Virus record (IMG/VR): IMGVR_UViG_3300045988_050695
Span: 1-33,253 of that record
Length of the DNA stretch: 33,253 nt
Source: a virus
Direction: 5' to 3' (one strand)
Position 1 is the stretch's first letter, and each line of letters begins with the position of its first letter. The translations under genes and the position numbers were made by a program. Below are positions 1,931-33,253 of this stretch, in pieces. The notes beneath the pieces are model-generated. The model was not told the DNA's origin. It made no database searches and was given only the letters and a program-made list of their open reading frames with translations.

Positions 1931-2482
1931 GTGCAACACGGGTTTAAGCACAACATCCCATTGGTCTTTTGTAAAAATTATTCGCCGCAGGTCTTAAAGG
2001 CGAACATGCGAATCTGCGGAGCCACTGAGCACGCGCTCATTCTTTACCGGGATAAGTTGCCAAAGTTCAGGAATGACGGAAAAATGATATTTAATTGGTT
2101 CGAGTGGAAAAGAGACGGAAAAGATATTCCGAAGATCCACCCTGCACAGAAGCCAGTAAATCTTTTAAAACGGCTCATTGAGATCTTCACGGATCCCGGC
2201 GATGTAGTGATAGACCCGTGCGCCGGTAGCGGTTCGACGCTAAGAGCAGCCGCAGAGTTAGGCCGTGATGCATATGGTTTTGAATGTTCAAAAGAAATTT
2301 ATGTGAAAGCACAAAAAATGATGCTAAACAGTGAACAGATTGGAGCGTTTGAATGGGAAAGAGAGAAAGAGAAAAAGGCAAGCGCGGAGAGCGGGAACTC
2401 GCCCGCCTGCTACGAGGGTACGGCTACGATGCCCGGCGAGGGCAACAATACTGCGGAGCAGCTGGAGATGCCGATGTGGTAG
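1931..2482 (+). CDS. N6/N4 DNA methyltransferase fragment (C-terminal two thirds only; DPPY catalytic motif absent)
   Basis: It contains IHPAQKPVNLLKRLIEIFTDPGDVVIDPCAGSGSTLRAAAELGRDAYGFE, the HP.QKP and D-P-x-x-G-S-G-S/T AdoMet motifs of the beta-class N6_N4_Mtase family. No D/N-PP-Y/F motif is present. The ORF begins (GTG) only 16 nt after ssb. Its tail overlaps the next gene by 130 nt. Confidence 0.65.
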   Translation: MQHGFKHNIPLVFCKNYSPQVLKANMRICGATEHALILYRDKLPKFRNDGKMIFNWFEWKRDGKDIPKIHPAQKPVNLLKRLIEIFTDPGDVVIDPCAGSGSTLRAAAELGRDAYGFECSKEIYVKAQKMMLNSEQIGAFEWEREKEKKASAESGNSPACYEGTATMPGEGNNTAEQLEMPMW

Positions 2483-2709
2483 GTCTGCCCGGTATACATA
2501 TCGAGGTCAAGCGAACAGAGAAGCTAAGCCTGTATGATGCACTAGCACAAGCCATAGCAGACGCCCGGCCCGGAGAAATGCCGATTGTGGCTCATCGCCG
2601 GAATAACTGCGATTGGGTGATAATACAGCCGTTAGACGACTGGATAAAAATATATCGGGAATGTATTGCGGCAAACAAGGAGATAGACGATGAAAAAGAT
2701 ATATTTTAA
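2353..2709 (+). CDS. PDDEXK-family nuclease, Hjc-like Holliday-junction resolvase (putative)
   Basis: KGKRGERELARLLRGYGYDARRGQQYCGAAGDADVVGLPGIHIEVKRTEKLSLYDAL...MPIVAHRR has the G.R.EREL / D-x(n)-E-V-K pattern of small phage resolvase-like nucleases. GGAG lies 7 nt upstream of the ATG. Confidence 0.6.
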   Translation: MGKREREKGKRGERELARLLRGYGYDARRGQQYCGAAGDADVVGLPGIHIEVKRTEKLSLYDALAQAIADARPGEMPIVAHRRNNCDWVIIQPLDDWIKIYRECIAANKEIDDEKDIF

Positions 2710-2950
2710 CAAACCAAAAGAAATGAGCTGCCTATTGTCACATTTCCACGGCGTGGCAGTAGATAGCCGAAAGGCCCCGAATGTTACATATCTGGCCAAA
2801 AATCGAAAATGTGGGATAGTCACAGTGGACGGAGTGGCGATCTGGCCGGAAGAAGAAACGCCGTCAATCATTGAGACGCTGACGGCAGGCATAAAAGCAG
2901 AGGCTAAAGAAGTATTTGACGAGATAAGAGACTGGAGGCGGTTCAGATGA
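2690..2950 (+). CDS. Hypothetical protein, paralogue A1 of 4052..4309
   Basis: It shares HF-G-AVDS, TYL, WP-EE, EA-EVF and R-W-R blocks in the same order with the 85-aa ORF at 4052..4309. Both are about 85 aa. Confidence 0.7.
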   Translation: MKKIYFNKPKEMSCLLSHFHGVAVDSRKAPNVTYLAKNRKCGIVTVDGVAIWPEEETPSIIETLTAGIKAEAKEVFDEIRDWRRFR

Positions 2951-3123
2951 AAAACTGGGAGAAATACGAAGAAGAGATCAAAAAGATAGGCGTTGGAAAT
3001 ATGGCCATAGATAAAAACGGTAAGACTGGCCACTGCGTAGCGATGGCTTGCAGAAAATGTATAGGCTATAAGAACGGCTGCGACAGAACAATAACTGAGT
3101 GGTTATACCAGGAGGCAGAATGA
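2947..3123 (+). CDS. Small Cys-rich protein (58 aa), paralogue B1 of the N-terminus of 5590..6039; below the ORF-track cutoff
   Basis: ATGA overlaps at both ends (2947 and 3120). MKNWEKYEEEIKKIGVGNMAIDKNGKTGHCVAMACRKCIGYKNGCDRTITEWLYQEAE aligns with MTNFEKYKDEILEII..IAVD..K...SCNEMRCSQCIRY......FFKWLYEEAKE, with a shared C-x4-C-x2-C. Confidence 0.7.
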   Translation: MKNWEKYEEEIKKIGVGNMAIDKNGKTGHCVAMACRKCIGYKNGCDRTITEWLYQEAE

Positions 3124-3377
3124 AACGAAACTCTGCGAACGATCTAAAAGACACCATGTGGACATTCCTGATGGACTACGGACAGGAAGCGGACATACAG
3201 TCGCTGAAAGAATATGTCTATGACTTGATTGGAATGACCACACAAAAGACCGCCGGCCAGCGGAAAACGAAAAAGGATATAAACTGGGTTGAATTAGAAC
3301 CAACATTGATGGCGATCGTGATCGAGGCAACCTGTTTAGTACTATCCGGCCGGCTGGATGAACTGGAGGAGAAATGA
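3120..3377 (+). CDS. Hypothetical protein
   Basis: ORF in the operon frame. ATG 3120 overlaps the upstream stop (ATGA) with GGAGG upstream. I recognise no motif. Confidence 0.6.
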   Translation: MKRNSANDLKDTMWTFLMDYGQEADIQSLKEYVYDLIGMTTQKTAGQRKTKKDINWVELEPTLMAIVIEATCLVLSGRLDELEEK

Positions 3378-3910
3378 GATTTCACTTATTCTTTGAACAA
3401 TCAGGCACATTTAAGAACGAATTAAGGAAGCTGGGCCATGAAGCAATAGACTATGACATCTTAAACGATTTTGGGCAGACTGATGTAGTCATAGACATAT
3501 TTTCAGAAATCGAGAAATCCTATGCGGGGTGGGGTAGCATTTTCGACAATATAGCCGAAGATGACATGATAATAGCGTTCTTCCCCTGCGTTCGATTTGA
3601 AGCCCGAATAATAATGAATATGAAAGGAGTTCATTATGGCAGTGAAAAGTGGAGTGATTTGAAAAAAATCGAATACAGCATGAGACTGCATAGCGAGTTG
3701 GCGCACATGTACCAATTGATATCAAAACTGGTCATCGTGTGCATAAGAAAGAAAATAGCCTTGGTAATAGAAAACCCATACAGTAGTCAGCACTACCTCA
3801 CACGGTACTGGCCGCTAAAGCCGGCAATCATAGATCACGACCGCCGGCGTGACGATGACGGTACTGATTGGGTCTGGGAAGACATTGAGGAAGGTGGAAA
3901 AGATGAATAG
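3374..3910 (+). CDS. Hypothetical protein with faint C5-methyltransferase-like core motifs
   Basis: LFFEQSGTF (motif I-like), IIAFFPCVRF (PC motif-like) and LVIENPYS (ENV-like) occur in the canonical order. There is no recognisable TRD or motifs IX/X. The acidic C-terminus is atypical. Confidence 0.6.
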   Translation: MRFHLFFEQSGTFKNELRKLGHEAIDYDILNDFGQTDVVIDIFSEIEKSYAGWGSIFDNIAEDDMIIAFFPCVRFEARIIMNMKGVHYGSEKWSDLKKIEYSMRLHSELAHMYQLISKLVIVCIRKKIALVIENPYSSQHYLTRYWPLKPAIIDHDRRRDDDGTDWVWEDIEEGGKDE

Positions 3911-4055
3911 AGTGTATAGAGGATGGTTTATCAGCAAAGATCCGATAATTAAAGGCCAGATGAAAGCTGTAAAAGGAAGAGAATCCATAATCGGAACAAT
4001 TGAAGAGATTGTAAAAGAAATAGATCAAAGAGCTGTTAAGGAGACGAAAAAATGA
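3903..4055 (+). CDS. Small hypothetical protein (50 aa)
   Basis: ATG 3903 follows GAAGGTGGA. It overlaps the upstream stop and ends in an ATGA overlap with the next gene. Confidence 0.5.
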   Translation: MNRVYRGWFISKDPIIKGQMKAVKGRESIIGTIEEIVKEIDQRAVKETKK

Positions 4056-4309
4056 AGAGATACGCTTTAAAGATGTATCCGGCAACGAAGCTTGTCCATT
4101 TTGACGGCTACGCGGTAGACAGCGAGATAGTAACAGGCCTTACCTACCTGTCAGATGGGCAGAATCATGGTCTGTTAAGAGCAAAGGAAGCCATGACATG
4201 GCCGAAAGAAGAAGATAACCAGGTGATCGGTCGAATGGTGCCGGAAGTAAGGAGAGAAGCCGCCGAGGTCTTCGAGATGGCGAGGAGGTGGGAGCGATGC
4301 GGAATTTAA
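4052..4309 (+). CDS. Hypothetical protein, paralogue A2 of 2690..2950
   Basis: See 2690..2950. It sits immediately upstream of the C5-methyltransferase gene. Confidence 0.7.
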   Translation: MKRYALKMYPATKLVHFDGYAVDSEIVTGLTYLSDGQNHGLLRAKEAMTWPKEEDNQVIGRMVPEVRREAAEVFEMARRWERCGI

Positions 4310-4340
4310 GCACGTTCCCACGAAAGACAAGGAACAAAAA

Positions 4341-5552
4341 ATGAAGTTTTTAGATTTTTTGCAGGAATCGGCGGGTTTAGGCTGGGCATGGAAATGGCAG
4401 GCCATGAATGTGTAGGTCATTGCGAAATTGATAAATTCGCCGATAAAAGTTACAGAGCAATGCACAAGATAAAGGAGAGTGAATGGTTTGCAAGTGACAT
4501 TACAAGAATTAAACCCGGAGAGCTTCCAGAAGCTGACTGTTACTGCTTCGGATTTCCATGCCAGGCTTTCAGCATTGCTGGAAACCGACGAGGCTTTGAA
4601 GATACTCGCGGGACTCTGTTTTTTGAAGTCATGCGGTTGGCTAAAGAGCGAAAGCCTCGTTTACTTTTCGCCGAAAATGTTAAAGGACTTCTTAACCACG
4701 AGGGGGGGGCAGACGTTCGGAATCATCATCAACGCCATGGATGAATTGGGGTACGATGTCGAATGGCAGGTGCTTAACAGCGCAGATTTCGGAGTCCCCC
4801 AAAACAGGGAGAGGGTGTTTATTATCGGACATCTTAGAGGATCAAGTGGACGAAAAATATTTCCCATCAGAGACAGCGACCGCACATCTGCTGGGTTTTC
4901 GCGACAAACAGCAAATACCATTACCACGCGAACCGGAGAATCGCAAGGGGTCGGAACGTATGTTGCTGAAAGTGAACAGCCGGCACAGATTAAACAGATT
5001 ATCGGCGGAAGCCAGGGACGAAGAGTCTACGATCCAGAAGGATTAAGCGTTACGCTGAGCAGTCAAGACGGCGGTTATGGAGATAGAACGGGACTATATG
5101 CCGTCCCGGTGTTAACGCCGGACAGGATAAATAAACGACAGAACGGCAGGAGATTTAAAGAAAACGGCGAGCCTATGTTTACGCTTACAGGGCAGGATAG
5201 GCACGGAGTAATGATCAAAGAAGCAACGGCAAAAGGATATGCCGAAGCAAATGAAGGCGATTCGATAGATTTTGCTAATCCGGGCAGTACAACCCGCAGA
5301 GGCAGAGTGAAAAAAGGAGTTGCAAGCACACTTGATACGAGATGTCAGCAGGACGTTTTGACCGGATATAAAATCCGCAAACTGACACCTCGCGAATGCT
5401 TCCGCTTACAAGGCTTTCCGGATGACTACTTTGACCGAGCTGCCACAGTTAACAGCGATAGCCAGCTGTATAAGCAGGCAGGAAATAGTGTAACTGTAAA
5501 TGTTGTTTATGAAATAGCGAAGAGGCTAAAAACAAAAAAACTGGACCTTTAA
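4341..5552 (+). pseudogene. dcm: DNA (cytosine-5) methyltransferase, interrupted by two compensating homopolymer frameshifts (T6 at 4355-4360, G8 at 4702-4709)
   Basis: All motifs are present but spread over three frame segments. These are MKFLDF / FAGIGGFRLGMEMAGHECVGHCEID (I), GFPCQAFSIAG (IV), ENVKGLL (VI), QNRERVFIIG (VIII), RKLTPRECFRLQGFPDDY (IX) and QAGNSVTVNV (X). The ATG with an RBS is at 4341. Confidence 0.85.
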
Positions 5553-5589: not shown

Positions 5590-6039
5590 ATGACAAATTT
5601 TGAAAAATACAAAGATGAAATACTGGAAATCATAGAATATAACACTATCGCAGTTGATACCAAAAAAAACAAGCCTCAAAGCTGTAATGAGATGCGTTGT
5701 TCACAATGCATACGATATAGCGACGATGGGCATTGCAGATTTCTGAATTTCTTCAAATGGCTCTATGAAGAAGCAAAAGAGTCGCTTCCTGCCCTAACCT
5801 TAAAAGAGCGAGGATTTTGTGAGATTATCGAAAATGGATTCATAGCGCGAGACCAAAATGGTAGCCTCTGGCTGTTTGATATGATGCCGGCAAAGGAAGA
5901 TGATTACAACATTACCTGGTGGAACAGTGCAAATGGCAGATATAAACGGTTGGATGGTAGGGCGTTCACGTTTATCACTTGGGAATCAGACAAGGCGTGG
6001 AGTATAGAAGAACTGCTACAGTTGGAGGTAGAGGGATGA
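5590..6039 (+). CDS. Hypothetical protein; N-terminal Cys-rich domain paralogous to 2947..3123 (B2)
   Basis: AGGAGG lies upstream. The N-terminal 60 aa align with the 58-aa ORF. The C-terminal domain (FIARDQNGSLWLFDMMP...FITWESDKAWSIEELL) has no function known to me. Confidence 0.75.
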   Translation: MTNFEKYKDEILEIIEYNTIAVDTKKNKPQSCNEMRCSQCIRYSDDGHCRFLNFFKWLYEEAKESLPALTLKERGFCEIIENGFIARDQNGSLWLFDMMPAKEDDYNITWWNSANGRYKRLDGRAFTFITWESDKAWSIEELLQLEVEG

Positions 6040-6680
6040 AGCTGAAACCATGCCCGAACTGCGGCAGCAGCAGAGTGTACATATGGCACATATGCACGGC
6101 GCGGCTGCCGTGGTGGCACTACGCCGAATGTGAGGACTGCCATTGGTGCGGGAAGACAAAGCTTTTTCGCCGGCGTGCAATAAGATCGTGGAATAAGGAG
6201 GGAAAAAATATGATAGATGAAAATAAACTGCTGGAAGAGGTGCAAAAACGGATAAATTATTGGGACGCCAAAGCCGCCGAATGCGACGAAGCTGGTTATT
6301 TGGAAAATATGGATATATGCGACGGTAAGGCGATGGAAATGCGTGAGGTCGTAAATTTCATAAAGGAATTACAAAATATGACCGACGACATTGAGAAAAA
6401 CCCAAAAAAAGAGAAATTGAAAAAGATCGCCGATCATTACGGTTTACAAGCACAAAAAGGAATGCTCATCGAAGAGATGGCTGAGCTGATGCAGGCAGTC
6501 AACAGGTTTGACCGCAATACAACCGAAAAAAACTTAGACGCTATCGCCGAAGAGATCGCAGATGTTGAAATCATGATCGCACAAGCTAAGTATTTATACG
6601 TAATTCCGCAAGAAAAAATTGACGAAATCACAGATTACAAGATACAGCGTACACTTGAAAGAATGGAGGTAGACCAATGA
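6036..6680 (+). CDS. Lar-like restriction-alleviation zinc-ribbon domain fused in frame to a MazG-like nucleotide pyrophosphohydrolase domain
   Basis: MKLKPCPNCGSS...ECEDCHWCG...RRRAIRSWNKEG fits the Lar family pattern (KPCPFCG...C..C...AI.AWN.R). The C-terminus LIEEMAELMQAV...AIAEEIADVEIMIAQAKYLY fits the MazG EE..EL / E..ADV motifs. There is no stop between them. An internal AAGGAGG-ATG lies at 6210. Confidence 0.6.
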   Translation: MKLKPCPNCGSSRVYIWHICTARLPWWHYAECEDCHWCGKTKLFRRRAIRSWNKEGKNMIDENKLLEEVQKRINYWDAKAAECDEAGYLENMDICDGKAMEMREVVNFIKELQNMTDDIEKNPKKEKLKKIADHYGLQAQKGMLIEEMAELMQAVNRFDRNTTEKNLDAIAEEIADVEIMIAQAKYLYVIPQEKIDEITDYKIQRTLERMEVDQ

Positions 6681-8163: not shown

Positions 8164-8498
8164 ACCAGACGATAGACAGCACCTCGCAAATCTTTGACGG
8201 AATGCCGCGCGGGAGCGGAATCTCTGACAAAACGGCAAGAGAGGCACAGAGACTTTGCGACTTATCCATTGACCTTATAGAACAACGATTTGAAGCAGCG
8301 ACCAAAAGAAAAGAGATAGGAGATACCATAAGAAGCGTAGAGGATACCAAGTATATGAGACTACTCTATCTTAGATACATAGAACTAAGATCATGGGGTA
8401 AGGTGTCCGAAGAAATGGGGATCAGTCCGCGATGGATATTTGACATGCACAATAAGGCACTTGAAGAAATTGCAGAAAAAATAACGATACCGCATTGA
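8064..8498 (+). CDS. Late-gene transcriptional regulator, sigma-70 region-4-like (DUF1492/ArpU-RinA-like position)
   Basis: MPRGSGISDKT...KYMRLLYLRYIELRSWGKVSEEMGISPRWIFDMHNKALEEI matches the DUF1492 / sigma region 4 HTH pattern as I remember it. It is located just before the HNH-terminase module. Confidence 0.6.
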   Translation: MDEKEKKRIKVYLQGYGREEEKLRQIEAEIDYINQTIDSTSQIFDGMPRGSGISDKTAREAQRLCDLSIDLIEQRFEAATKRKEIGDTIRSVEDTKYMRLLYLRYIELRSWGKVSEEMGISPRWIFDMHNKALEEIAEKITIPH

Positions 8499-8530
8499 AC
8501 CATCAGTGTGCGAGGTGATATGATTATAGC

Positions 8531-8824
8531 GTGGAAAAGAAAAAATATGGAAGCGAGCGTTGGAAGAAAAAAAGGAACAGAATACTTCGGCGCGATAAGT
8601 ACATCGACAAGATAGAAGCACGATATGGGAGGACAGTGGAGGCAACAATGGTCCACCATATCTTTCCGGCTGATGAGTATCCGGAGCTTTTCTGGACAGA
8701 TTGGAACCTGATAAGTGTAAGCAGGGCAACCCATCAGAGACTGCACAACAAAGACGGCAGTCTTTCCGATTTCGGCGAAGAGCTGCGAAGACGAACAGGA
8801 GAAAAAAATGGACTTAAAAGATAA
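8531..8824 (+). CDS. HNH endonuclease (packaging-associated type)
   Basis: W.KKRNRILRRDKY...ATMVHHIFP...WNLISVSRATHQRLH is an HNH core. The GTG start has GAGGTGA upstream. The position upstream of terS/terL is typical of cos phages with HK97-like heads. Confidence 0.8.
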   Translation: MEKKKYGSERWKKKRNRILRRDKYIDKIEARYGRTVEATMVHHIFPADEYPELFWTDWNLISVSRATHQRLHNKDGSLSDFGEELRRRTGEKNGLKR

Positions 8825-9062
8825 ACTGATAAAGGTAAAAGAAAAGATTGTAACGGGAGAAACAACTATAAAAGACATAGACACAATAAACGAGATCATA
8901 AAAGATATCGAGAAGATAGAAAAGATCGTTGAAAACTTTTCGCCCGAACTAAACGAAAGCGAAGAGATGATCGGTTCACTCTTACAACCTGGGATCACGA
9001 TTGACACTGTGAATATTTACTTTTTTGGCAGCGATAAAGAGGCAGAAAATGAAGCAGAGTAA
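8808..9062 (+). CDS. Hypothetical acidic protein
   Basis: 84-aa ORF overlapping the HNH stop, rich in E, K and I. No motif recognised. Confidence 0.45.
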   Translation: MDLKDKLIKVKEKIVTGETTIKDIDTINEIIKDIEKIEKIVENFSPELNESEEMIGSLLQPGITIDTVNIYFFGSDKEAENEAE

Positions 9063-11004: not shown

Positions 11005-12754
11005 AAACTGGCGGGAGGTTCTGGAGTACGCCGAGAGTATAAGAGACGGGAAAAAGATAGCGTGTAAGGAGCTGAAGCAGTGCGTTGACAGGTTTTTTAA
11101 AGATTTAAAAAATCCGGCTTACTGGCTGGATAAAAAAGCCCCTGAGTTCTGTATCGGAATAATAGAAAAAACGCTAAAACACCAACAAGGAGAAGACCTC
11201 GAAGGACGCCCCATGCAGGGTCGTCCTTTTATATTGCAGCCATTCCATAAGTTTATTGTCTACAACATTGTGGGATTTAAACATAAGGACTCAGACATTT
11301 TAAAATATCACGAAGCTCTGATCTTCGTACCGCGAAAGAATGTTAAAACGACTTTTGCGGCTGCCCTTGCCTGGTCTCTTTCCTTGTACTACCGCCGTAG
11401 TGGGTCAAAAGTGTATGTTACATCAGCTGCCCTTATGCAGTCGCTTGAAAGTTTTAACTTTCTAACGTATAACCTTGACCGCATGGGAGAAAGCGAAAGA
11501 AAAGGTGGCGGTGTAAAGATAATCGACAATAACAATGAGCACTCAATCAAGGCGGATTTCCCGGACGGATCAATCTTCATTCGGGCGCTTGCCGCTAATG
11601 CGGACGCGCAGGATTCTCTAAACTGTAATATCGCGATTGCTGATGAAATGCACGCGTACAAAAAGCCAAAGCAGTACAATCTGTTTAAAGAGGCTATGAA
11701 AGCCTATACCAATAAACTGATGATCGGCATTTCCACAGCCGGAGACAACGAGCAATTGTTTTTAGGACAAAGGCTGAAATACTGTCGTAAAGTCTTAGAC
11801 GGCACCGTCGAGGACGAACAGTATTTCATTTTCATGACCTGCGCCAACCCGGACGAGGCCGGCAATATAGATTTTACAAGCCCAAAGGTACACGAAATGG
11901 CCAATCCCTCATACGGAGTAACTATCCGGCCGCAGGAAATATTAAACGAGTCTTTGCAGGCACAAAACGACCCGCAGCAAAGAAAAGACTTTTATGCAAA
12001 AAGTCTAAACGTTTACACGAACTCGATAAGGGCATATTTCGACATTGAAGAGTTCAGGAAGTCCGACAAAAAATACAGATGGACACTCGACGAGCTGGCA
12101 AAGCTGCCGATAAAGTGGTACGGCGGCGCCGACTTGTCAAAGCTGCATGACCTCACAGCCGCCGCGCTCGTTGGAGTGTATAAAGACGTAACGATAGTAA
12201 TCACCCACGCTTTCTTCCCGGTCGTTGCCGCGCACGTAAAGGCGGACGAGGACAACATACCGCTTTTTGGCTGGGCAGAAGACGGCAATTTAACGTTATG
12301 CAACTCGCCGACGGTCAACTACTCGGACGTGGTTAACTGGTTTTTAACAATGAAATCCAAAGGGTTTAAAATCACGCAGATAGGACACGACCGAAAGTTC
12401 GGCCGTGAATTTTTCATTGACATGAAAAAGTCAGGATTTCGAATTGTCGATCAGCCTCAGTATTATTTCAAAAAATCCGAAGGATTTAGATACTTGGAGA
12501 AAGCCGCAAAAGACGGCAATCTATACTATCTTCATTCTGACGCTTTTGAATACTGCGTCCAAAATGTGGCGGCAATAGAAAAGACCGACGACATGATCCA
12601 GTATGAAAAGATCCATCCGGAGCTAAGAATTGATTTATTCGACGCCGCCGTATTCGCGGCAATAAGATATTTGGACAATTTAGAAAGATCACAAAAGGGA
12701 AAGGACTGGTGGGGAGACAGTGAGCAAAAAGAAAAGCAGAAAAACAAGAGATGA
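10994..12754 (+). CDS. terL: Terminase large subunit (Terminase_1 type)
   Basis: 586 aa with an N-terminal ATPase region ([24 protein letters not shown]) and a C-terminal nuclease region. It has a TTG start overlapping the terS stop. Synteny is terS-terL-portal. Confidence 0.9.
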
Positions 12755-27470: not shown

Positions 27471-27827
27471 ATGCCTGCCGAATATATCAGCCTGATTATT
27501 GCCGCGCTTGGCTTTGTCGCCTCGATCTATTATTCGGGGCGAAAGGCCAAAAATGAAGACATTGACAAGGTAACTAAAGAGGTTAAGCGGGATACCGAAG
27601 TGAATCTGAAACTTGACTCAATCATGACCTCGACAGCGGACACAGCGAAAAAACTGGACAAGCTGCAAGAGGACATGGCGGAAATGAAGACACAGTACTC
27701 GACCGCTCTTGAAAAAATATCCGACCTCGACAGGCGGGTCGGAAAACTTGAAACAAATCTCGGCAAGCTCCATCAGGAGCACCGGGAACATATGGCAATG
27801 TTAAGAGAAGAAAAAGGGGGCGCGTAG
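27471..27827 (+). CDS. Membrane-anchored coiled-coil protein, possible lysis accessory
   Basis: It has an N-terminal TM segment (YISLIIAALGFVASIYY) followed by a coiled coil. It is the last gene of the lysis cassette and ends in a terminator. Confidence 0.5.
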   Translation: MPAEYISLIIAALGFVASIYYSGRKAKNEDIDKVTKEVKRDTEVNLKLDSIMTSTADTAKKLDKLQEDMAEMKTQYSTALEKISDLDRRVGKLETNLGKLHQEHREHMAMLREEKGGA

Positions 27828-27838
27828 CCCCCTTTTTT
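27816..27838. terminator. Bidirectional intrinsic terminator
   Basis: The sequence is AAAAA-GGGGGC-gcgta-GCCCCC-TTTTTT. It lies between the convergent + strand lysis operon and the - strand 139-aa gene. Confidence 0.8.
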
Positions 27839-27894
27839 CGTCTAACTAAACTCTCCAGTCTTTTTCTTTAGCTATCGTTTTTGCCATCGTTACA

Positions 27895-28314
27895 CTAATC
27901 TACGCTTTCGATCGTCACGATTCTCGGATCAAGAACCGCCAGTACGACGGCGTTCTCACCCTCGACTATATTGGCGACGCCCATATCGCGAAGATTTTCA
28001 AACCTTACGCAGTCGTAGCCGCGTTTTTTTGCAAACGCCGCGATTGTCCAGGTTGACCACCAACTCTGGCACTCATTCGCATACTCGCTCATCAACTCCC
28101 AATCCTTGAACCACGGCAGATCGCTCCAGCACTCGCCCCCACAGTCAAGAGTGAGCAGGTTTTTAGGCTCAATCTCAACCTCGTAAAAATGTTCAGCGGC
28201 ATACGAACGAGCCACATTTTCGCTTGTCGAAAACCATGCACCCGTGCCGTTCTCGCTCTCTGCTAAAAACTCTTTAAATATCTTTTCACTCTTGCTGCCG
28301 TGGTAAGCTTTCAT
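27895..28314 (-). CDS. ADP-ribosyltransferase-fold-like protein (ART-PolyVal-like, tentative); accessory gene
   Basis: The N-terminal KAYHGSKSEKIFKEF, GAWFSTSENVARSYA, a later KKRGYDCVRFE and the terminal VLAVLDPRIV recall the YHG[ST]..F..F / G.[FW]F[ST]....A..YA / GYD / vv.dp.i pattern of phage/plasmid polyvalent-protein ART domains (memory only). It has its own consensus promoter and a terminator. Confidence 0.35.
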   Translation of the reverse strand: MKAYHGSKSEKIFKEFLAESENGTGAWFSTSENVARSYAAEHFYEVEIEPKNLLTLDCGGECWSDLPWFKDWELMSEYANECQSWWSTWTIAAFAKKRGYDCVRFENLRDMGVANIVEGENAVVLAVLDPRIVTIESVD

Positions 28315-28362
28315 TTTTCTTCTTCCTTTCTTCGGGGCTTTCTTGCCCTCCTTACATTATTC

Positions 28363-28391
28363 ATTATATACGCATTGCGTATAAATGTCAA
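28363..28391 (-). promoter_or_regulatory. Consensus promoter TTGACA-17-TATAAT with 17-bp palindromic operator TATACGCAATGCGTATA in the spacer (copy 1, upstream of the 139-aa gene)
   Basis: On the minus strand the -35 is 28391..28386 and the -10 is 28368..28363. The palindrome is 28367..28383. The element overlaps the stop codon of the HTH gene. Confidence 0.75.
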
Positions 28392-28582
28392 GGGGTTTTA
28401 GAAAATTTTTTCCCAATTTCTTCGATTTTTTCTATCACTAATCGTTCAACATAATCGGGCGGTTTCCGGTTCCCCAGCTCCCAGTCCTGCAATGTCCTTG
28501 GCGGTATGCCTATCTCTTTGCAGATCGTTTCACGGGATAGCCCGGCAGCCTGACGGGCTTCTTTAATAGCGTTCTTTTCCAT
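28388..28582 (-). CDS. Xre-family helix-turn-helix protein (64 aa); candidate repressor/antitoxin/controller
   Basis: AAGLSRETICKEIGIPPRTLQDWELGNRKPP is a classic Xre/Cro-type HTH. AAGGAG lies 5 nt upstream of ATG 28582. Confidence 0.8.
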   Translation of the reverse strand: MEKNAIKEARQAAGLSRETICKEIGIPPRTLQDWELGNRKPPDYVERLVIEKIEEIGKKFSKTP

Positions 28583-28713
28583 ACATGCTCCTTATTTTTT
28601 CTTACTTTGCTTTAACGCCGCTAATGCAACTATCAGGGCGGCTATGCTGATGTCGTTAGGTCTATCAGGGATTTTAATGTTTCCATCTTCGCTTACCTCC
28701 TTTCCATGATTCT

Positions 28714-28742
28714 ATTATATACGCATTGCGTATAAATGTCAA
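28714..28742 (-). promoter_or_regulatory. Consensus promoter TTGACA-17-TATAAT with the same 17-bp palindrome (copy 2, upstream of the HTH gene)
   Basis: On the minus strand the -35 is 28742..28737 and the -10 is 28719..28714. The palindrome is 28718..28734. It is 33/33 nt identical to copy 1. Confidence 0.75.
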
Positions 28743-28849
28743 GGGGGCGAAAAAAATTTATGAAAAGCTCCTTTTGATGGTATTCTACTATTAGTATAGA
28801 AAAAAATCAACGAAAAAACGAAAAAAATCTAAAAAAAATAGAAAATATA

Positions 28850-28878
28850 TTGACACTCTAATTAAATTAGACTATAAT
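28850..28878 (+). promoter_or_regulatory. Consensus promoter TTGACA-17-TATAAT with 15-bp palindrome TCTAATTAAATTAGA in the spacer (early rightward promoter)
   Basis: The -35 is 28850-28855, the -10 is 28873-28878 and the palindrome is 28857-28871. A second TATAAT lies at 28884-28889. Confidence 0.75.
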
Positions 28879-28910
28879 CATAGTATAATTTGATGAAGGA
28901 GGAAAAAAAA

Positions 28911-29111
28911 GTGCAGTTGACAATGAAGCAAGCGAGAATTGGGGCCAACTTAACCATGCAAGAGATTGCTGAAAAAATGGGGATTCATTATCAAACCTAT
29001 AGCCGAATGGAAGCTCATCCGGAAGATGTGACCATAAAAGAAGCATATAAGTTTGCTGAAATTACAGGATTGAATTTTGAGGATATTTTTTTCGGTTGCA
29101 AATCTAATTAA
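28911..29111 (+). CDS. Xre/Cro-like helix-turn-helix protein
   Basis: MKQARIGANLTMQEIAEKMGIHYQTYSRMEAHPEDVTIKEAYKFAEITG is an Xre HTH. AAGGAGG (28896-28902) lies 8 nt before GTG 28911. The listed TTG 28890 start lies within or upstream of the RBS. Confidence 0.8.
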   Translation: MQLTMKQARIGANLTMQEIAEKMGIHYQTYSRMEAHPEDVTIKEAYKFAEITGLNFEDIFFGCKSN

Positions 29112-29117
29112 ATTAGA
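29103..29117. promoter_or_regulatory. Second copy of palindrome TCTAATTAAATTAGA, overlapping the Xre stop codon, flanked by degenerate promoter hexamers (TTGCAA ... TTACCT)
   Basis: It is an exact 15/15 match to 28857-28871. The TAA stop of the Xre gene (29109-29111) lies inside it. Confidence 0.8.
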
Positions 29118-29161
29118 ATTACCTATTGAATATTTCTTAGAGGAGTAGGAAAGGAGACAGG

Positions 29162-29737
29162 ATGACAAAAGAACAGTTAAACAAGGTTTTAGAAAAGCAT
29201 AAGAAGTGGCTAAATGATGAACCTGGTGGAGAGCGAGCAGACCTCTGGGGAGCAGACCTCTGGGGAGCAGACCTCCGGGAAGCAGACCTCCGGCGAGCAG
29301 ACCTCCGGGGAGCAAACCTCTGGGGAGCAGACCTCCGGGAAGCAGACCTCCGGGGAGCATACCTCCGGGGAGCAAACAACATACCTGATTATGTATGCCC
29401 TATATGTTGCCCGGAAAAAGGCTCTTTTATTGGATTCAAAAAAGCCATCGTATTTAATTGGCATACAGAAGTAATTGTTGAATTAGAAATTCCAGCCGAG
29501 GCCAAGCGAAGCTCAGCTACCAATAGAAAATGCAGATGTAGTAAAGCAAAGGTGTTATCGATAACAGATTTTAGTGGTGTAGCTGAATTTCAAATTGCAG
29601 TAAGCAATTATGATAATGATTTCATTTACGAAGTGGGCAAGACTGTAGTTGTTGATGATTTTGACGAAAACAGATGGAATGAATGCTCAACTGGCATACA
29701 TTTCTTCATAACCAGAGATGAGGCTGTTAACTATTGA
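29162..29737 (+). CDS. Pentapeptide-repeat protein with conserved C-terminal domain of unknown function
   Basis: About 10 consecutive A(D/N)L-x-x pentapeptides ([47 protein letters not shown]). These are followed by [16 protein letters not shown]...[10 protein letters not shown]...[21 protein letters not shown] lies upstream. Confidence 0.85.
29235..29377. repeat. 15-bp tandem repeat (GAGCAGACCTCYGGG), about 9.5 copies
   Basis: Units start at 29235 and recur every 15 bp to 29369, with only 1-2 substitutions per unit. All six frames are open across it. Confidence 0.95.
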
Positions 29738-32784: not shown

Positions 32785-33253
32785 ATGGAAGACATGACAT
32801 ACATAAAGATTTACCGTAAGAGCTTGCAGAATGAGATCTTCCTTGAATTACCATTCGACAGATGGCACGCGTTTATGTTTCTACTGTTAAGCGCCAGACG
32901 CTTCCCCACTATCGTGATGATAAAGGGCAAAAGCATAACCCTTGACACCGGGCAGCTGATCTACGGAGATGACACATTAGCTGAGCGCTGGGGTTGGTCG
33001 AGGGGCAAGGTAAGACGGTTTTTGAGCCTGTTAGAAGACCTAGAAATGATCAAAAAAAACGGTACACCTTATGGGACAGTTATAACCATAGAAAACTATT
33101 CAAAATACCAGTGCAACGATACACTATGCGGCACACCTGTACCCGCTGAAATTCCAACAGATGCGTGCGAGGGCGGTACAGCAGACGGTACATCGCACGG
33201 TACAGCAGACGGTACATCGCACGGTACAGCAGACGGTACATCGCACGGTACAG
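32785..33253 (+). CDS. Replisome organizer / DnaD-like replication initiator, N-terminal part (continues at base 2 after circular closure)
   Basis: GAGGTGA lies upstream of ATG 32785. MEDMTYIKIYRKSLQNEIFLELPFDRWHAFMFLLLSARRFPTIVMIKGKSITLDTGQLIYGDDTLAERWGWSRGKVRRFLSLLEDLEMI is a typical wHTH organizer N-domain. The frame is still open at the window end, inside the GTADGTSH repeat. Confidence 0.8.
   Translation, partial: MEDMTYIKIYRKSLQNEIFLELPFDRWHAFMFLLLSARRFPTIVMIKGKSITLDTGQLIYGDDTLAERWGWSRGKVRRFLSLLEDLEMIKKNGTPYGTVITIENYSKYQCNDTLCGTPVPAEIPTDACEGGTADGTSHGTADGTSHGTADGTSHGT
33175..33253. repeat. 24-bp tandem repeat GGTACAGCAGACGGTACATCGCAC, 3.3 copies (same array as 2..79)
   Basis: Units at 33175, 33199 and 33223, partial at 33247-33253. 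The last 56 nt of the window equal the first 56 nt. Confidence 0.95.

Follow-up and report, generated by a model that had tools for sequence, protein, structure and literature searches.

In Streptococcus prophages, the anti-CRISPR-associated (Aca) regulator Aca11 (acrIIA25-aca11-acrIIA3) has cargo on both sides and two strong promoters, each of which has the same inverted repeat between its -35 and -10 elements and both of which are repressed in reporter assays (PMC12282945). Another such regulator, Aca10, binds a perfect inverted repeat, ATACGCTCAtTGAGCGTAT (ATACGC-N7-GCGTAT), that overlaps the promoter of its acr operon, and its residues Q37 and R44 are important for operator binding (PMC9410881). 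Extra operator copies before neighbouring operons were predicted for nearly all Aca families in a 2026 survey, which also placed polyvalent-protein-associated (LPD) domains among the Aca-regulated cargo (PMC13551039). In polyvalent proteins, which are predicted to be packaged in the virion and injected, ADP-ribosyltransferases (ARTs) are the most common protein-modifying enzymatic domain; the ART-PolyVal family is defined by an active site of H (strand 1), Y and D (strand 5) and has a predicted role in host-protein modification at an early stage of invasion (Iyer et al. 2017, PMC5512222). Here we describe a locus in a 33,253-nt stretch of phage DNA (positions 1 to 33,253 of IMG/VR record IMGVR_UViG_3300045988_050695, hereafter the window) in which a duplicated promoter-operator unit brackets the gene of a 64-amino-acid (aa) Xre-type helix-turn-helix (HTH) protein and precedes the gene of a 139-aa ART-like protein.

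The reading towards which we lean is that this locus is an Aca-type autorepressed early-expression cassette with a swappable slot and an ART as its cargo, probably serving anti-defence or host takeover. A first-pass annotation of the same DNA had proposed a toxin-antitoxin, defence or conversion cassette built on an uncharacterised pairing of HTH and effector, and we relate our results to its claims where they bear on them.

A duplicated promoter-operator unit

The promoters and genes of the cassette are as follows, in window coordinates:

28347..28408, minus strand: copy 1 of the duplicated unit (promoter, operator and start of the 5' untranslated region, 5'UTR), by gapped alignment with 28696-28759
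28696..28759, minus strand: copy 2 of the duplicated unit, by gapped and ungapped alignment with copy 1
28363..28391, minus strand: proximal promoter P1, with -35 TTGACA at 28391-28386, -10 TATAAT at 28368-28363 and operator TATACGCAaTGCGTATA at 28367-28383
28714..28742, minus strand: distal promoter P2, with -35 at 28742-28737, -10 at 28719-28714 and the identical operator palindrome at 28718-28734
28388..28582, minus strand: 64-aa Xre-type HTH, Aca10-like predicted autorepressor (Pfam HTH_3, E 1.1e-8)
27895..28314, minus strand: 139-aa stand-alone ART-PolyVal gene, the cargo (Pfam PF18760; predicted active site H5, Y38, D110)

Alignment bears out the previously reported 33-nt exact direct repeat, ATTATATACGCATTGCGTATAAATGTCAAGGGG, at 28363-28395 and 28714-28746. 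Ungapped extension lengthens it to 46 nt at 89% identity, and gapped alignment enlarges the duplicated unit to ~62-64 nt (28347-28408 versus 28696-28759), reaching into the 5'UTR; the unit takes in ~25 nt at the start of the transcript as well as A/T-rich sequence that precedes the -35. Read on the minus strand, both copies present TTGACA-17-TATAAT and match all 12 of 12 consensus positions, and a 17-bp palindrome, TATACGCAaTGCGTATA, fills the spacer, just as the first-pass annotation had it; it also overlaps the -10 of both P1 and P2. Such promoters are rare: with one mismatch allowed, only three occur in the window, against a chance expectation of 0.18, and all three are perfect and fall within 28363-28878. 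The palindrome is confined to P1 and P2 in the window even when three mismatches are tolerated (0.06 expected).

The positions of the two copies relative to the genes also agree with what had been described. Copy 2, carrying P2, lies ~130 nt upstream of the HTH start codon and is predicted to drive the HTH gene, and copy 1 overlaps the end of that gene, whose stop TGA (28390-28388) is part of the P1 -35 hexamer. The distance from P1 to the ATG of the 139-aa open reading frame (ORF), earlier given as about 50 nt, is 48 nt, and P1 is the predicted driver of the ART gene. One detail has to be corrected, in that the CCTCC/CAT flank of the repeat, taken for a segment resembling a ribosome-binding site and start, is 5'UTR sequence and not the ribosome-binding site and start of the real genes. 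We saw no terminator between the HTH and ART genes, and transcripts from P2 should therefore read through into the ART gene. By established promoter logic, repression through occlusion of RNA polymerase is the only effect open to a site that lies within a spacer of the optimal 17 nt and overlaps the -10.

The HTH protein and its operator family

The 64-aa protein consists of an HTH (residues 6-48) and a tail of ~15 residues, with no toxin-binding domain. Ten residues (R10, P27, R29, T30, Q32, D33, W34, G37, R39 and P42) are invariant in the family alignment, and the recognition helix P-x-R-T-x-Q-D-W and the G-x-R-x-x-P loop following it are invariant throughout the family. When the family profile was compared with solved structures, Aca10 (7XI5, 65 aa) was the best match (E 6e-8, 35.2 bits), outranking Aca2, C-proteins and HigA; the single sequence matches Aca10 weakly (E 0.085), so the relationship is a distant one. 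R34-T35-x-Q37 and R44 of Aca10 align with the invariant R29-T30-x-Q32 and R39 of the window HTH. Two features of an Aca regulator are present, namely an inverted repeat overlapping the -35/-10 region of its own operon's promoter, and homology to a named Aca with the DNA-contact residues kept. On this comparison we regard the protein as a distant Aca10 homolog; given the unrelated cargos of near-identical cassettes (see below), it is a putative generic autorepressor rather than an ART-specific antitoxin.

A search of public collections found 12 loci that carry the 21-nt operator/-10 string, and an HTH homolog is encoded at most 1 kb downstream in 10 of them (phmmer E 1e-9 to 1e-41), in gene contexts that are otherwise unrelated and that include a HicB-HTH fusion. 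In L004, L013, L015 and L011 the operator is followed by one or two small orphan genes and then by the HTH gene in last place, and HTH homologs in general usually end small cargo operons rather than belonging to genetic switches. In L005, L006, L009 and L014 the operator-promoter is followed by HicA and then by a HicB whose C-terminal domain is the HTH homolog, and L007 has the same arrangement as the window. Judged by these sequences, one operator/HTH module appears to be common to phage cargo cassettes and a chromosomal HicAB toxin-antitoxin system. The layout with two promoters also recurs in the HTH family: it is found in L001, L007 and L016/17 and in the distant relatives L100, whose HTH is 42% identical to that of the window, and L072, which has a duplicated promoter/operator unit of ~60 nt.

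Because the operator and the HTH co-occur, and because of the homology to Aca10, there is strong comparative evidence that the 64-aa HTH would bind the palindrome and gate both genes, a prediction that the first-pass annotation had already made.

Assemblies of Christensenellales, Selenomonas and Veillonellaceae contain the operator as well, and on chromosomes of the latter two taxa the hicA-hicB promoter has the identical palindrome (for example L005 1968-2655). The HTH is encoded on 236 IMG/VR contigs and has family relatives in human-faecal phage contigs; exact operator searches of IMG/VR returned no match. A strict scan for ATACGC-N0-9-GCGTAT in 80 distant HTH loci gave only two matches. 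With two mismatches, the same scan gave 31 matches in 23 loci, compared with ~12 expected from shuffled sequences, and many of these are near-perfect symmetric variants. Repeated exact palindromes with 7-nt arms were not found in the distant HTH loci.

The 139-aa ART-PolyVal protein

The 139-aa protein matches Pfam PF18760 over residues 2-117 (33.6 bits, E 7.8e-8; curated gathering threshold 31.2), a family that is also on record for P0001 and P0002, the two ART homologs that we looked up. An exhaustive HMMER scan of 1.84 billion representative proteins gave 18 matches, among them one 95% identical ortholog and one 156-aa stand-alone relative, and the longer matches, of up to 3,731 aa, are multidomain proteins; a word-indexed protein search returned a single close homolog. 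In a 14-domain alignment the query retains all conserved positions of the family, comprising YHGS (H5), G-x-G-x-W-F-S, A35-x-x-Y38, D-x-x-G60-x-x-W63 and G99-Y-D101...N107-x-x-D110, with Y38, G99, N107 and D110 invariant. H5, Y38 and D110 supply the family's H-Y-D active site, and the strands on which it is defined agree with E2-7 and E102-110 of the structural model.

That model was built with AlphaFold2 from the alignment (predicted local distance difference test score, pLDDT, 80.6; predicted template-modeling score, pTM, 0.79), a single-sequence model being unusable (pLDDT 41). Its listed Foldseek matches in the PDB are all ART or ART-like folds (KptA included) or a cyanophage ejection protein, and include PARP and tankyrase catalytic domains, AcrIF11 (6kyf) and the MbcT toxin (E 0.04). 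Among the predicted viral structures of BFVD the matches reach E 6e-9; many are annotated ART-PolyVal, and they include other stand-alone proteins of 150-190 aa. The profile and structure checks run on the 139-aa protein thus uphold the ART fold that had been proposed from the letters; the proposed catalytic triad, H-Y-E or R-S-E, is replaced by H-Y-D, and the effector's family already has a name in Pfam. Taking profile, alignment and model together, we identify the protein as a predicted stand-alone ART-PolyVal with an ADP-ribosyltransferase fold, and we regard it as probably enzymatically active. ART-PolyVal domains are found overwhelmingly in proteins of invading elements, that is, in phage virion or ejection proteins and conjugative elements.

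Other searches returned nothing of use. When PDB sequences were searched, the ART and its profile gave chance matches only (for example myoglobin), no PADLOC defence-system model matches the protein, and Pfam gives no RES, ParT or DarT match for it. A search for IMG/VR loci with the single protein found no relatives, the alignment being too divergent to serve; tblastn against GenBank phages gave no match, a DNA search of the cassette region against the same phages gave trivial matches only, and Rfam found nothing significant over 27700-29300. Two memberships were considered and rejected. The protein does not belong to the AcrIF11 family, scoring 15.3 bits with NCBIfam NF052490 against a cut-off of 50 (E 0.029); the 6KYF sequence, which was first checked against the PDB, aligns with the ART-PolyVal profile in hhalign at a probability of 0.4% and gives a BLASTP E of 0.42. 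Nor is it a polyvalent protein, being a single 139-aa domain encoded on the opposite strand and outside the structural module.

The cargo slot in related loci

What lies behind P1 differs in L007. This locus and the window share 96% identity from 28765, upstream of P2, as far as the ART start codon at 28311, where the similarity stops. Its HTH is 98% identical to that of the window, and genes of 187 and 114 aa stand in place of the ART; the lysis genes that adjoin the cassette are only 67-71% identical between the two. In L016/17 an HTH of 94% identity goes with a 172-aa cargo, and L018/19 have cargos of 189 and 104 aa. A P1-type promoter, operator and 5'UTR precede these differing cargo genes in L007, L016/17 and L018/19. 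L001 has the same cassette with an ART (protein 95% identical), with differing flanks and a further gene after the ART. Across 10 or more related loci the alternative cargos are small orphan proteins of 63-189 aa that belong to no Pfam family and to no PHROG of known function; just three match any PHROG family, all of unknown function. The other stand-alone ART, P0002, adjoins an integrase and has no HTH neighbour.

Because near-identical HTH cassettes carry unrelated cargo, swapped exactly at the start codon, the position behind the proximal promoter appears to be an exchangeable cargo slot and the HTH-ART pairing not to be specific. The claim of an uncharacterised, specific pairing of HTH and effector accordingly finds no support, and the same near-identical HTHs with unrelated cargo, together with an ART in P0002 that lacks an HTH, speak against the toxin-antitoxin reading made in the first-pass annotation.

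L007 is an integrated prophage, and its cassette lies between the lysis genes and the transfer RNA (tRNA) fragment of the attachment (att) site, beside host genes; the cassette therefore also occurs in temperate phages. L004 and L016-L018 hold it in the same post-lysis slot. In L018 the cargo cassette is separated from the lysis genes by a HicA/HicB pair (2548-3327), so that accessory modules of several kinds gather in the post-lysis slot. In L001, the gene after the ART (832-1011, MEKEYIVNYKIEN...) starts like the 172-aa cargo that comes directly after the proximal promoter in L016 (915-1433, MKKEYIV...). Insertion of the ART may have parted an older cargo gene from the conserved 5'UTR.

Proposed mechanism and competing explanations

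From what can be read in the sequence (promoters, palindromes, gene order, domains, cargo swapping and the co-occurrence of operator and HTH) we infer repressor binding, the timing of expression, enzymatic activity, a target and a benefit to the phage, as follows. Upon entry of the phage DNA, P2 and P1 would be read by the main sigma factor of the host, P2 transcribing the HTH gene and continuing into the ART gene and P1 transcribing the ART gene directly. The dimeric Aca10-like HTH, as it accumulates, would occupy the 17-bp palindrome at both promoters and shut its own synthesis by negative autoregulation. The ART would be shut off doubly, with initiation at P1 blocked and read-through from P2 roadblocked, and the outcome would be a brief pulse of ART that gives way to low, buffered expression. 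With nicotinamide adenine dinucleotide (NAD+) as substrate, the ART would attach single ADP-ribose units to one or a few host proteins and so benefit the phage, the target class being a defence component or the expression machinery and the function resembling that of AcrIF11 or T4 Alt/ModA. The promoter-operator-5'UTR unit would double as a conserved junction for different cargos in different phages. We hold the regulatory part of this model with considerable confidence; that the ART benefits the phage against its host is a direction that we favour with some reserve.

Several points weigh against this interpretation. Whether the benefit lies in anti-defence, in defence or in host shut-off cannot be read from the sequence, and the L007 cassette is at the att-proximal end of an integrated prophage, which is the classic position of morons that benefit the lysogen. 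The ART match exceeds the Pfam threshold by just 2.4 bits, with one close homolog only, and solved ART structures match the predicted fold weakly (best E 1.3e-3, template-modeling (TM) score ~0.45-0.56). The operator/HTH module also appears to autoregulate HicAB pairs and would thus be silent on the function of its cargo. No validated anti-defence protein is found among the cargos, so that the label 'Aca' comes from homology and architecture, and the half-sites are spaced by 3 nt as against 7 nt in Aca10. Lastly, Iyer et al. (2017, PMC5512222) count toxin ARTs among the relatives of the ART-PolyVal clade. A wider proposal, which we offer tentatively and hold to be doubtful, is that the HTH and an operator of the form A[TC]ACGC-N3-GCGT[AG]T mark a widespread hypervariable counter-defence locus of human-gut Firmicutes phages, in which the stand-alone ART-PolyVal would be a new enzymatic anti-defence protein that uses ADP-ribosylation to disable a defence system of Gram-positive or Negativicutes hosts.

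The locus could also be of use to a lysogen, the ART being a prophage defence, superinfection-exclusion or abortive-infection effector that is kept low by the HTH and that modifies the components of an incoming phage or kills the infected cell. The place of the L007 cassette between lysis genes and the att-site tRNA fragment, a classic hotspot for morons and defence genes, and the same post-lysis slot in L004 and L016-L018 fit this explanation, as do the kinship of the ART-PolyVal clade with toxin ARTs and the use of ARTs as defence effectors elsewhere, for example DarT (PMC9503650). However, neither an integrase nor a CI-type repressor is found among the window phage's ORFs of at least 100 aa, PADLOC has no match for the ART, and ART-PolyVal domains sit overwhelmingly in the proteins of invading elements. 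The nearest characterised relative, Aca10, and the architectural match, Aca11, both come from counter-defence operons, and the small orphans that form the alternative cargos are unlike typical multi-gene defence systems. We consider this explanation unlikely, although it is the strongest of the alternatives.

We judge it very unlikely that the ART is a growth-arresting toxin with the HTH as its cognate antitoxin and autorepressor, in the manner of a type II toxin-antitoxin system. Xre-type antitoxins do pair with NAD-using toxins in Xre-RES, ParST and MbcTA, MbcT is among the weak fold matches (E 0.04), and the same operator and HTH domain autoregulate HicAB pairs. A cognate antitoxin, however, would not serve unrelated partners, as the HTHs of L007 (98% identical) and L016/17 (94%) do, and a 64-aa HTH leaves no space for toxin neutralisation, a task that falls to a separate N-terminal domain in HicB. 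P0002, the nearest other stand-alone ART, is without an HTH neighbour, the ART has a full-strength promoter of its own that uncouples its expression from that of the HTH, and there is no Pfam match to RES, ParT or DarT. Even less credible is a CI-like immunity repressor divergent from a Cro-like gene, with the ART as a passenger in the manner of lambda rexAB. The HTH gene is indeed divergent from a plus-strand promoter that drives a 73-aa Cro-like HTH, and the position would fit the genetic switch that many temperate siphoviruses have there; but TATACGCAaTGCGTATA is absent from that early promoter, which bears a different palindrome, and from the rest of the genome, so the lytic genes could not be repressed through it. 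No integrase was found among the ORFs of at least 100 aa, and the HTH homologs usually end small cargo operons. With the operator missing from the early promoter, we rejected this candidate.

Leader, 5'UTR and terminator elements

Three further elements lie in or next to the cassette:

27811..27837, no strand assigned: bidirectional intrinsic terminator, an 11-pair G+C-rich stem between A and T runs
28334..28350, minus strand: cargo 5'UTR hairpin GGGC-loop-GCCC, 4 bp, conserved among related loci
28592..28652, minus strand: remnant of a 33-aa hydrophobic-peptide gene in the HTH leader, with N-terminus and start codon deleted

The hairpin at 27811-27837 closes the ART gene on the minus strand and the convergent lysis genes on the plus strand, in keeping with the bidirectional terminator that had been noted at the end of the 139-aa ORF. 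In the cargo 5'UTR, the window, L007 and L018/19 have GGGC...GCCC as the hairpin stem, which a compensatory change makes GGGG...CCCC in L001 and L016. Since Aca proteins are reported to bind structured motifs in 5'UTRs (PMC13551039), the hairpin could be a second, RNA-level control point.

The HTH leader of the window retains the C-terminal two-thirds of a peptide frame (...DISIAALIVALAALKQSKKK*) without a start codon. A 33-aa hydrophobic, membrane-peptide-like ORF is intact at this place in L007 (MKKMQMIIKILSLCISIAALIVALAALKQSKKK; 11575-11676) and absent from L001, and the BLAST alignment between the window and the L007 leader breaks at 28645/28652. The peptide gene is thus found in three states of decay across the window, L007 and L001. 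A 14-codon mini-ORF with a GGAGG ribosome-binding site (METLKSLIDLTTSA) is also present in the HTH leader.

Phage genome context

The window resembles a complete genome of ~33 kb, circularly assembled and opened within a tandem repeat. Both of its ends (1-133 and 33174-33253) have 3.3 tandem copies of a perfect 24-nt repeat, CGGTACAGCAGACGGTACATCGCA, and 10/20-nt repeats at 85-133 follow the end repeat, ahead of a gene for a helicase-loader-like protein (324-917). The assembly is probably circular or terminally redundant, with its ends inside an iteron-like array that is possibly a replication origin. It encodes a helicase loader, a single-stranded DNA-binding protein (SSB), a replication initiator, several DNA methyltransferases, a Lar-like protein and Gam, as well as an exonuclease, a terminase, a capsid protein and a GH25 endolysin, and its ORFs of at least 100 aa include no integrase or CI-type repressor. 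The early region (1931-5552 and 5979-6680) has at least 3-4 DNA-methyltransferase-like ORFs and a Lar-like restriction-alleviation domain fused to a nucleoside triphosphate (NTP) pyrophosphohydrolase. With its methyltransferases, Lar-like protein and Gam, the genome appears to be rich in counter-restriction genes.

The cassette lies between the lysis genes and a divergent rightward early promoter. That its genes are the only credible ones on the minus strand, as the first-pass annotation held, is reasonable, as the other long minus-strand ORF in a gap between plus-strand genes (8366-9007) is overlapped by better plus-strand ORFs.

The third perfect promoter of the window, TTGACA-17-TATAAT at 28850-28878 on the plus strand, has the palindrome TCTAATTaAATTAGA in its spacer (28857-28871) and drives the 73-aa Cro-like HTH (28890/28912..29111). 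A second exact copy of TCTAATTaAATTAGA (29103-29117) lies over the stop of the Cro-like gene, after TTGCAA and upstream of the next gene. Since TATACGCAaTGCGTATA and TCTAATTaAATTAGA each occur twice, both divergent HTH genes are bracketed by a palindrome of their own, in a mirror-image design; TCTAATTaAATTAGA was not found in any of the loci retrieved. The gene behind the second plus-strand palindrome (29162-29737, plus strand) encodes a pentapeptide-repeat domain fused to DUF5758, and a 15-nt unit is repeated in tandem 9.3 times within it (29235-29374). Since Qnr, MfpA and other proteins with pentapeptide repeats mimic DNA, this gene may be another regulated counter-host cargo.

Comparison with known systems

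The regulator and its operator most resemble those of Aca10 (acrIC7-acrIC6-aca10 of Pseudomonas citronellolis, PDB 7XI5). Both proteins are single Xre-type HTHs of nearly the same length (65 aa for Aca10, 64 aa here), with ~37% identity over 43 residues as counted from the profile alignment, and both operators are perfect inverted repeats with ATACGC/GCGTAT half-sites over the promoter of the regulator's own operon. The two differ in that the half-sites are 7 nt apart in Aca10 and 3 nt apart here, in the order of genes (the regulator follows the cargo in the Aca10 operon and precedes it here), in the host, which is Pseudomonas for Aca10 whereas the window is a gut Firmicutes-type phage, and in the cargo, the Aca10 operon having acr genes whereas no validated acr is associated with this cassette.

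With Aca11 the locus shares the regulatory architecture, in which two operator-bearing promoters flank the regulator, although here this is predicted from sequence; the cargos of Aca11 are stoichiometric Cas9 inhibitors, and that of the window is a predicted enzyme. The layout is not new, having a precedent in Aca11 (PMC12282945), and is predicted for most other Aca families (PMC13551039). The operator/HTH pair could anchor a guilt-by-association search for accessory, probably anti-defence, genes in gut phages. Aca1, Aca2 and Aca13 have been used as such anchors in Proteobacteria and streptococci. The variable cargos of 63-189 aa seen here would be immediate anti-defence candidates.

For the cargo, the closest characterised protein in form is the anti-CRISPR ART AcrIF11 (PDB 6KYF), which at 132 aa is likewise stand-alone and phage- or plasmid-encoded. 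It is the best reciprocal structural match of similar size to the predicted fold (TM 0.56/0.57), and the order of key residues is similar, H7-F26-H37-D115 in AcrIF11 versus H5-F28-Y38-N107/D110 here (PMC8120803). Its target, Cas8f of type I-F, is a proteobacterial feature. This likeness in fold is the single hint of an anti-defence role among the cargos. If the ART of the window were an anti-defence protein, it would be the second known enzymatic ART of that kind after AcrIF11, and this would be the first function assigned to the ART-PolyVal family, for which our literature searches turned up no experimental test of function.

The ART-PolyVal domain of polyvalent proteins (PF18760) has the same domain family, H-Y-D configuration and phage provenance as the protein of the window. 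A typical ART-PolyVal is one of many domains in a protein of 500-3,700 aa, whereas here it makes up the whole 139-aa protein, and unlike the virion-delivered polyvalent proteins it is predicted to be made after entry, from a repressible early promoter. The stand-alone form is not unique, given P0002 and several BFVD entries. A 139-aa stand-alone ART with a two-promoter circuit would be a tractable entry to target finding.

Finally, the HicAB operons of Selenomonas and Veillonellaceae (L005, L006, L009 and L014) have the identical palindrome in their promoter and a homologous HTH. In HicB, the HTH is a C-terminal domain beside a separate N-terminal neutralising domain, whereas the window HTH stands alone and its cargo is exchangeable. 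One repressor/operator module would thus be reused in phage cargo cassettes and HicAB operons, the regulatory principle itself not being new. Taken as a whole, the locus belongs to a kind of system already known, the Aca-type autorepressed accessory cassettes, and joins a distant relative of Aca10 as regulator to an architecture like that of Aca11 and a cargo from a named ART family.

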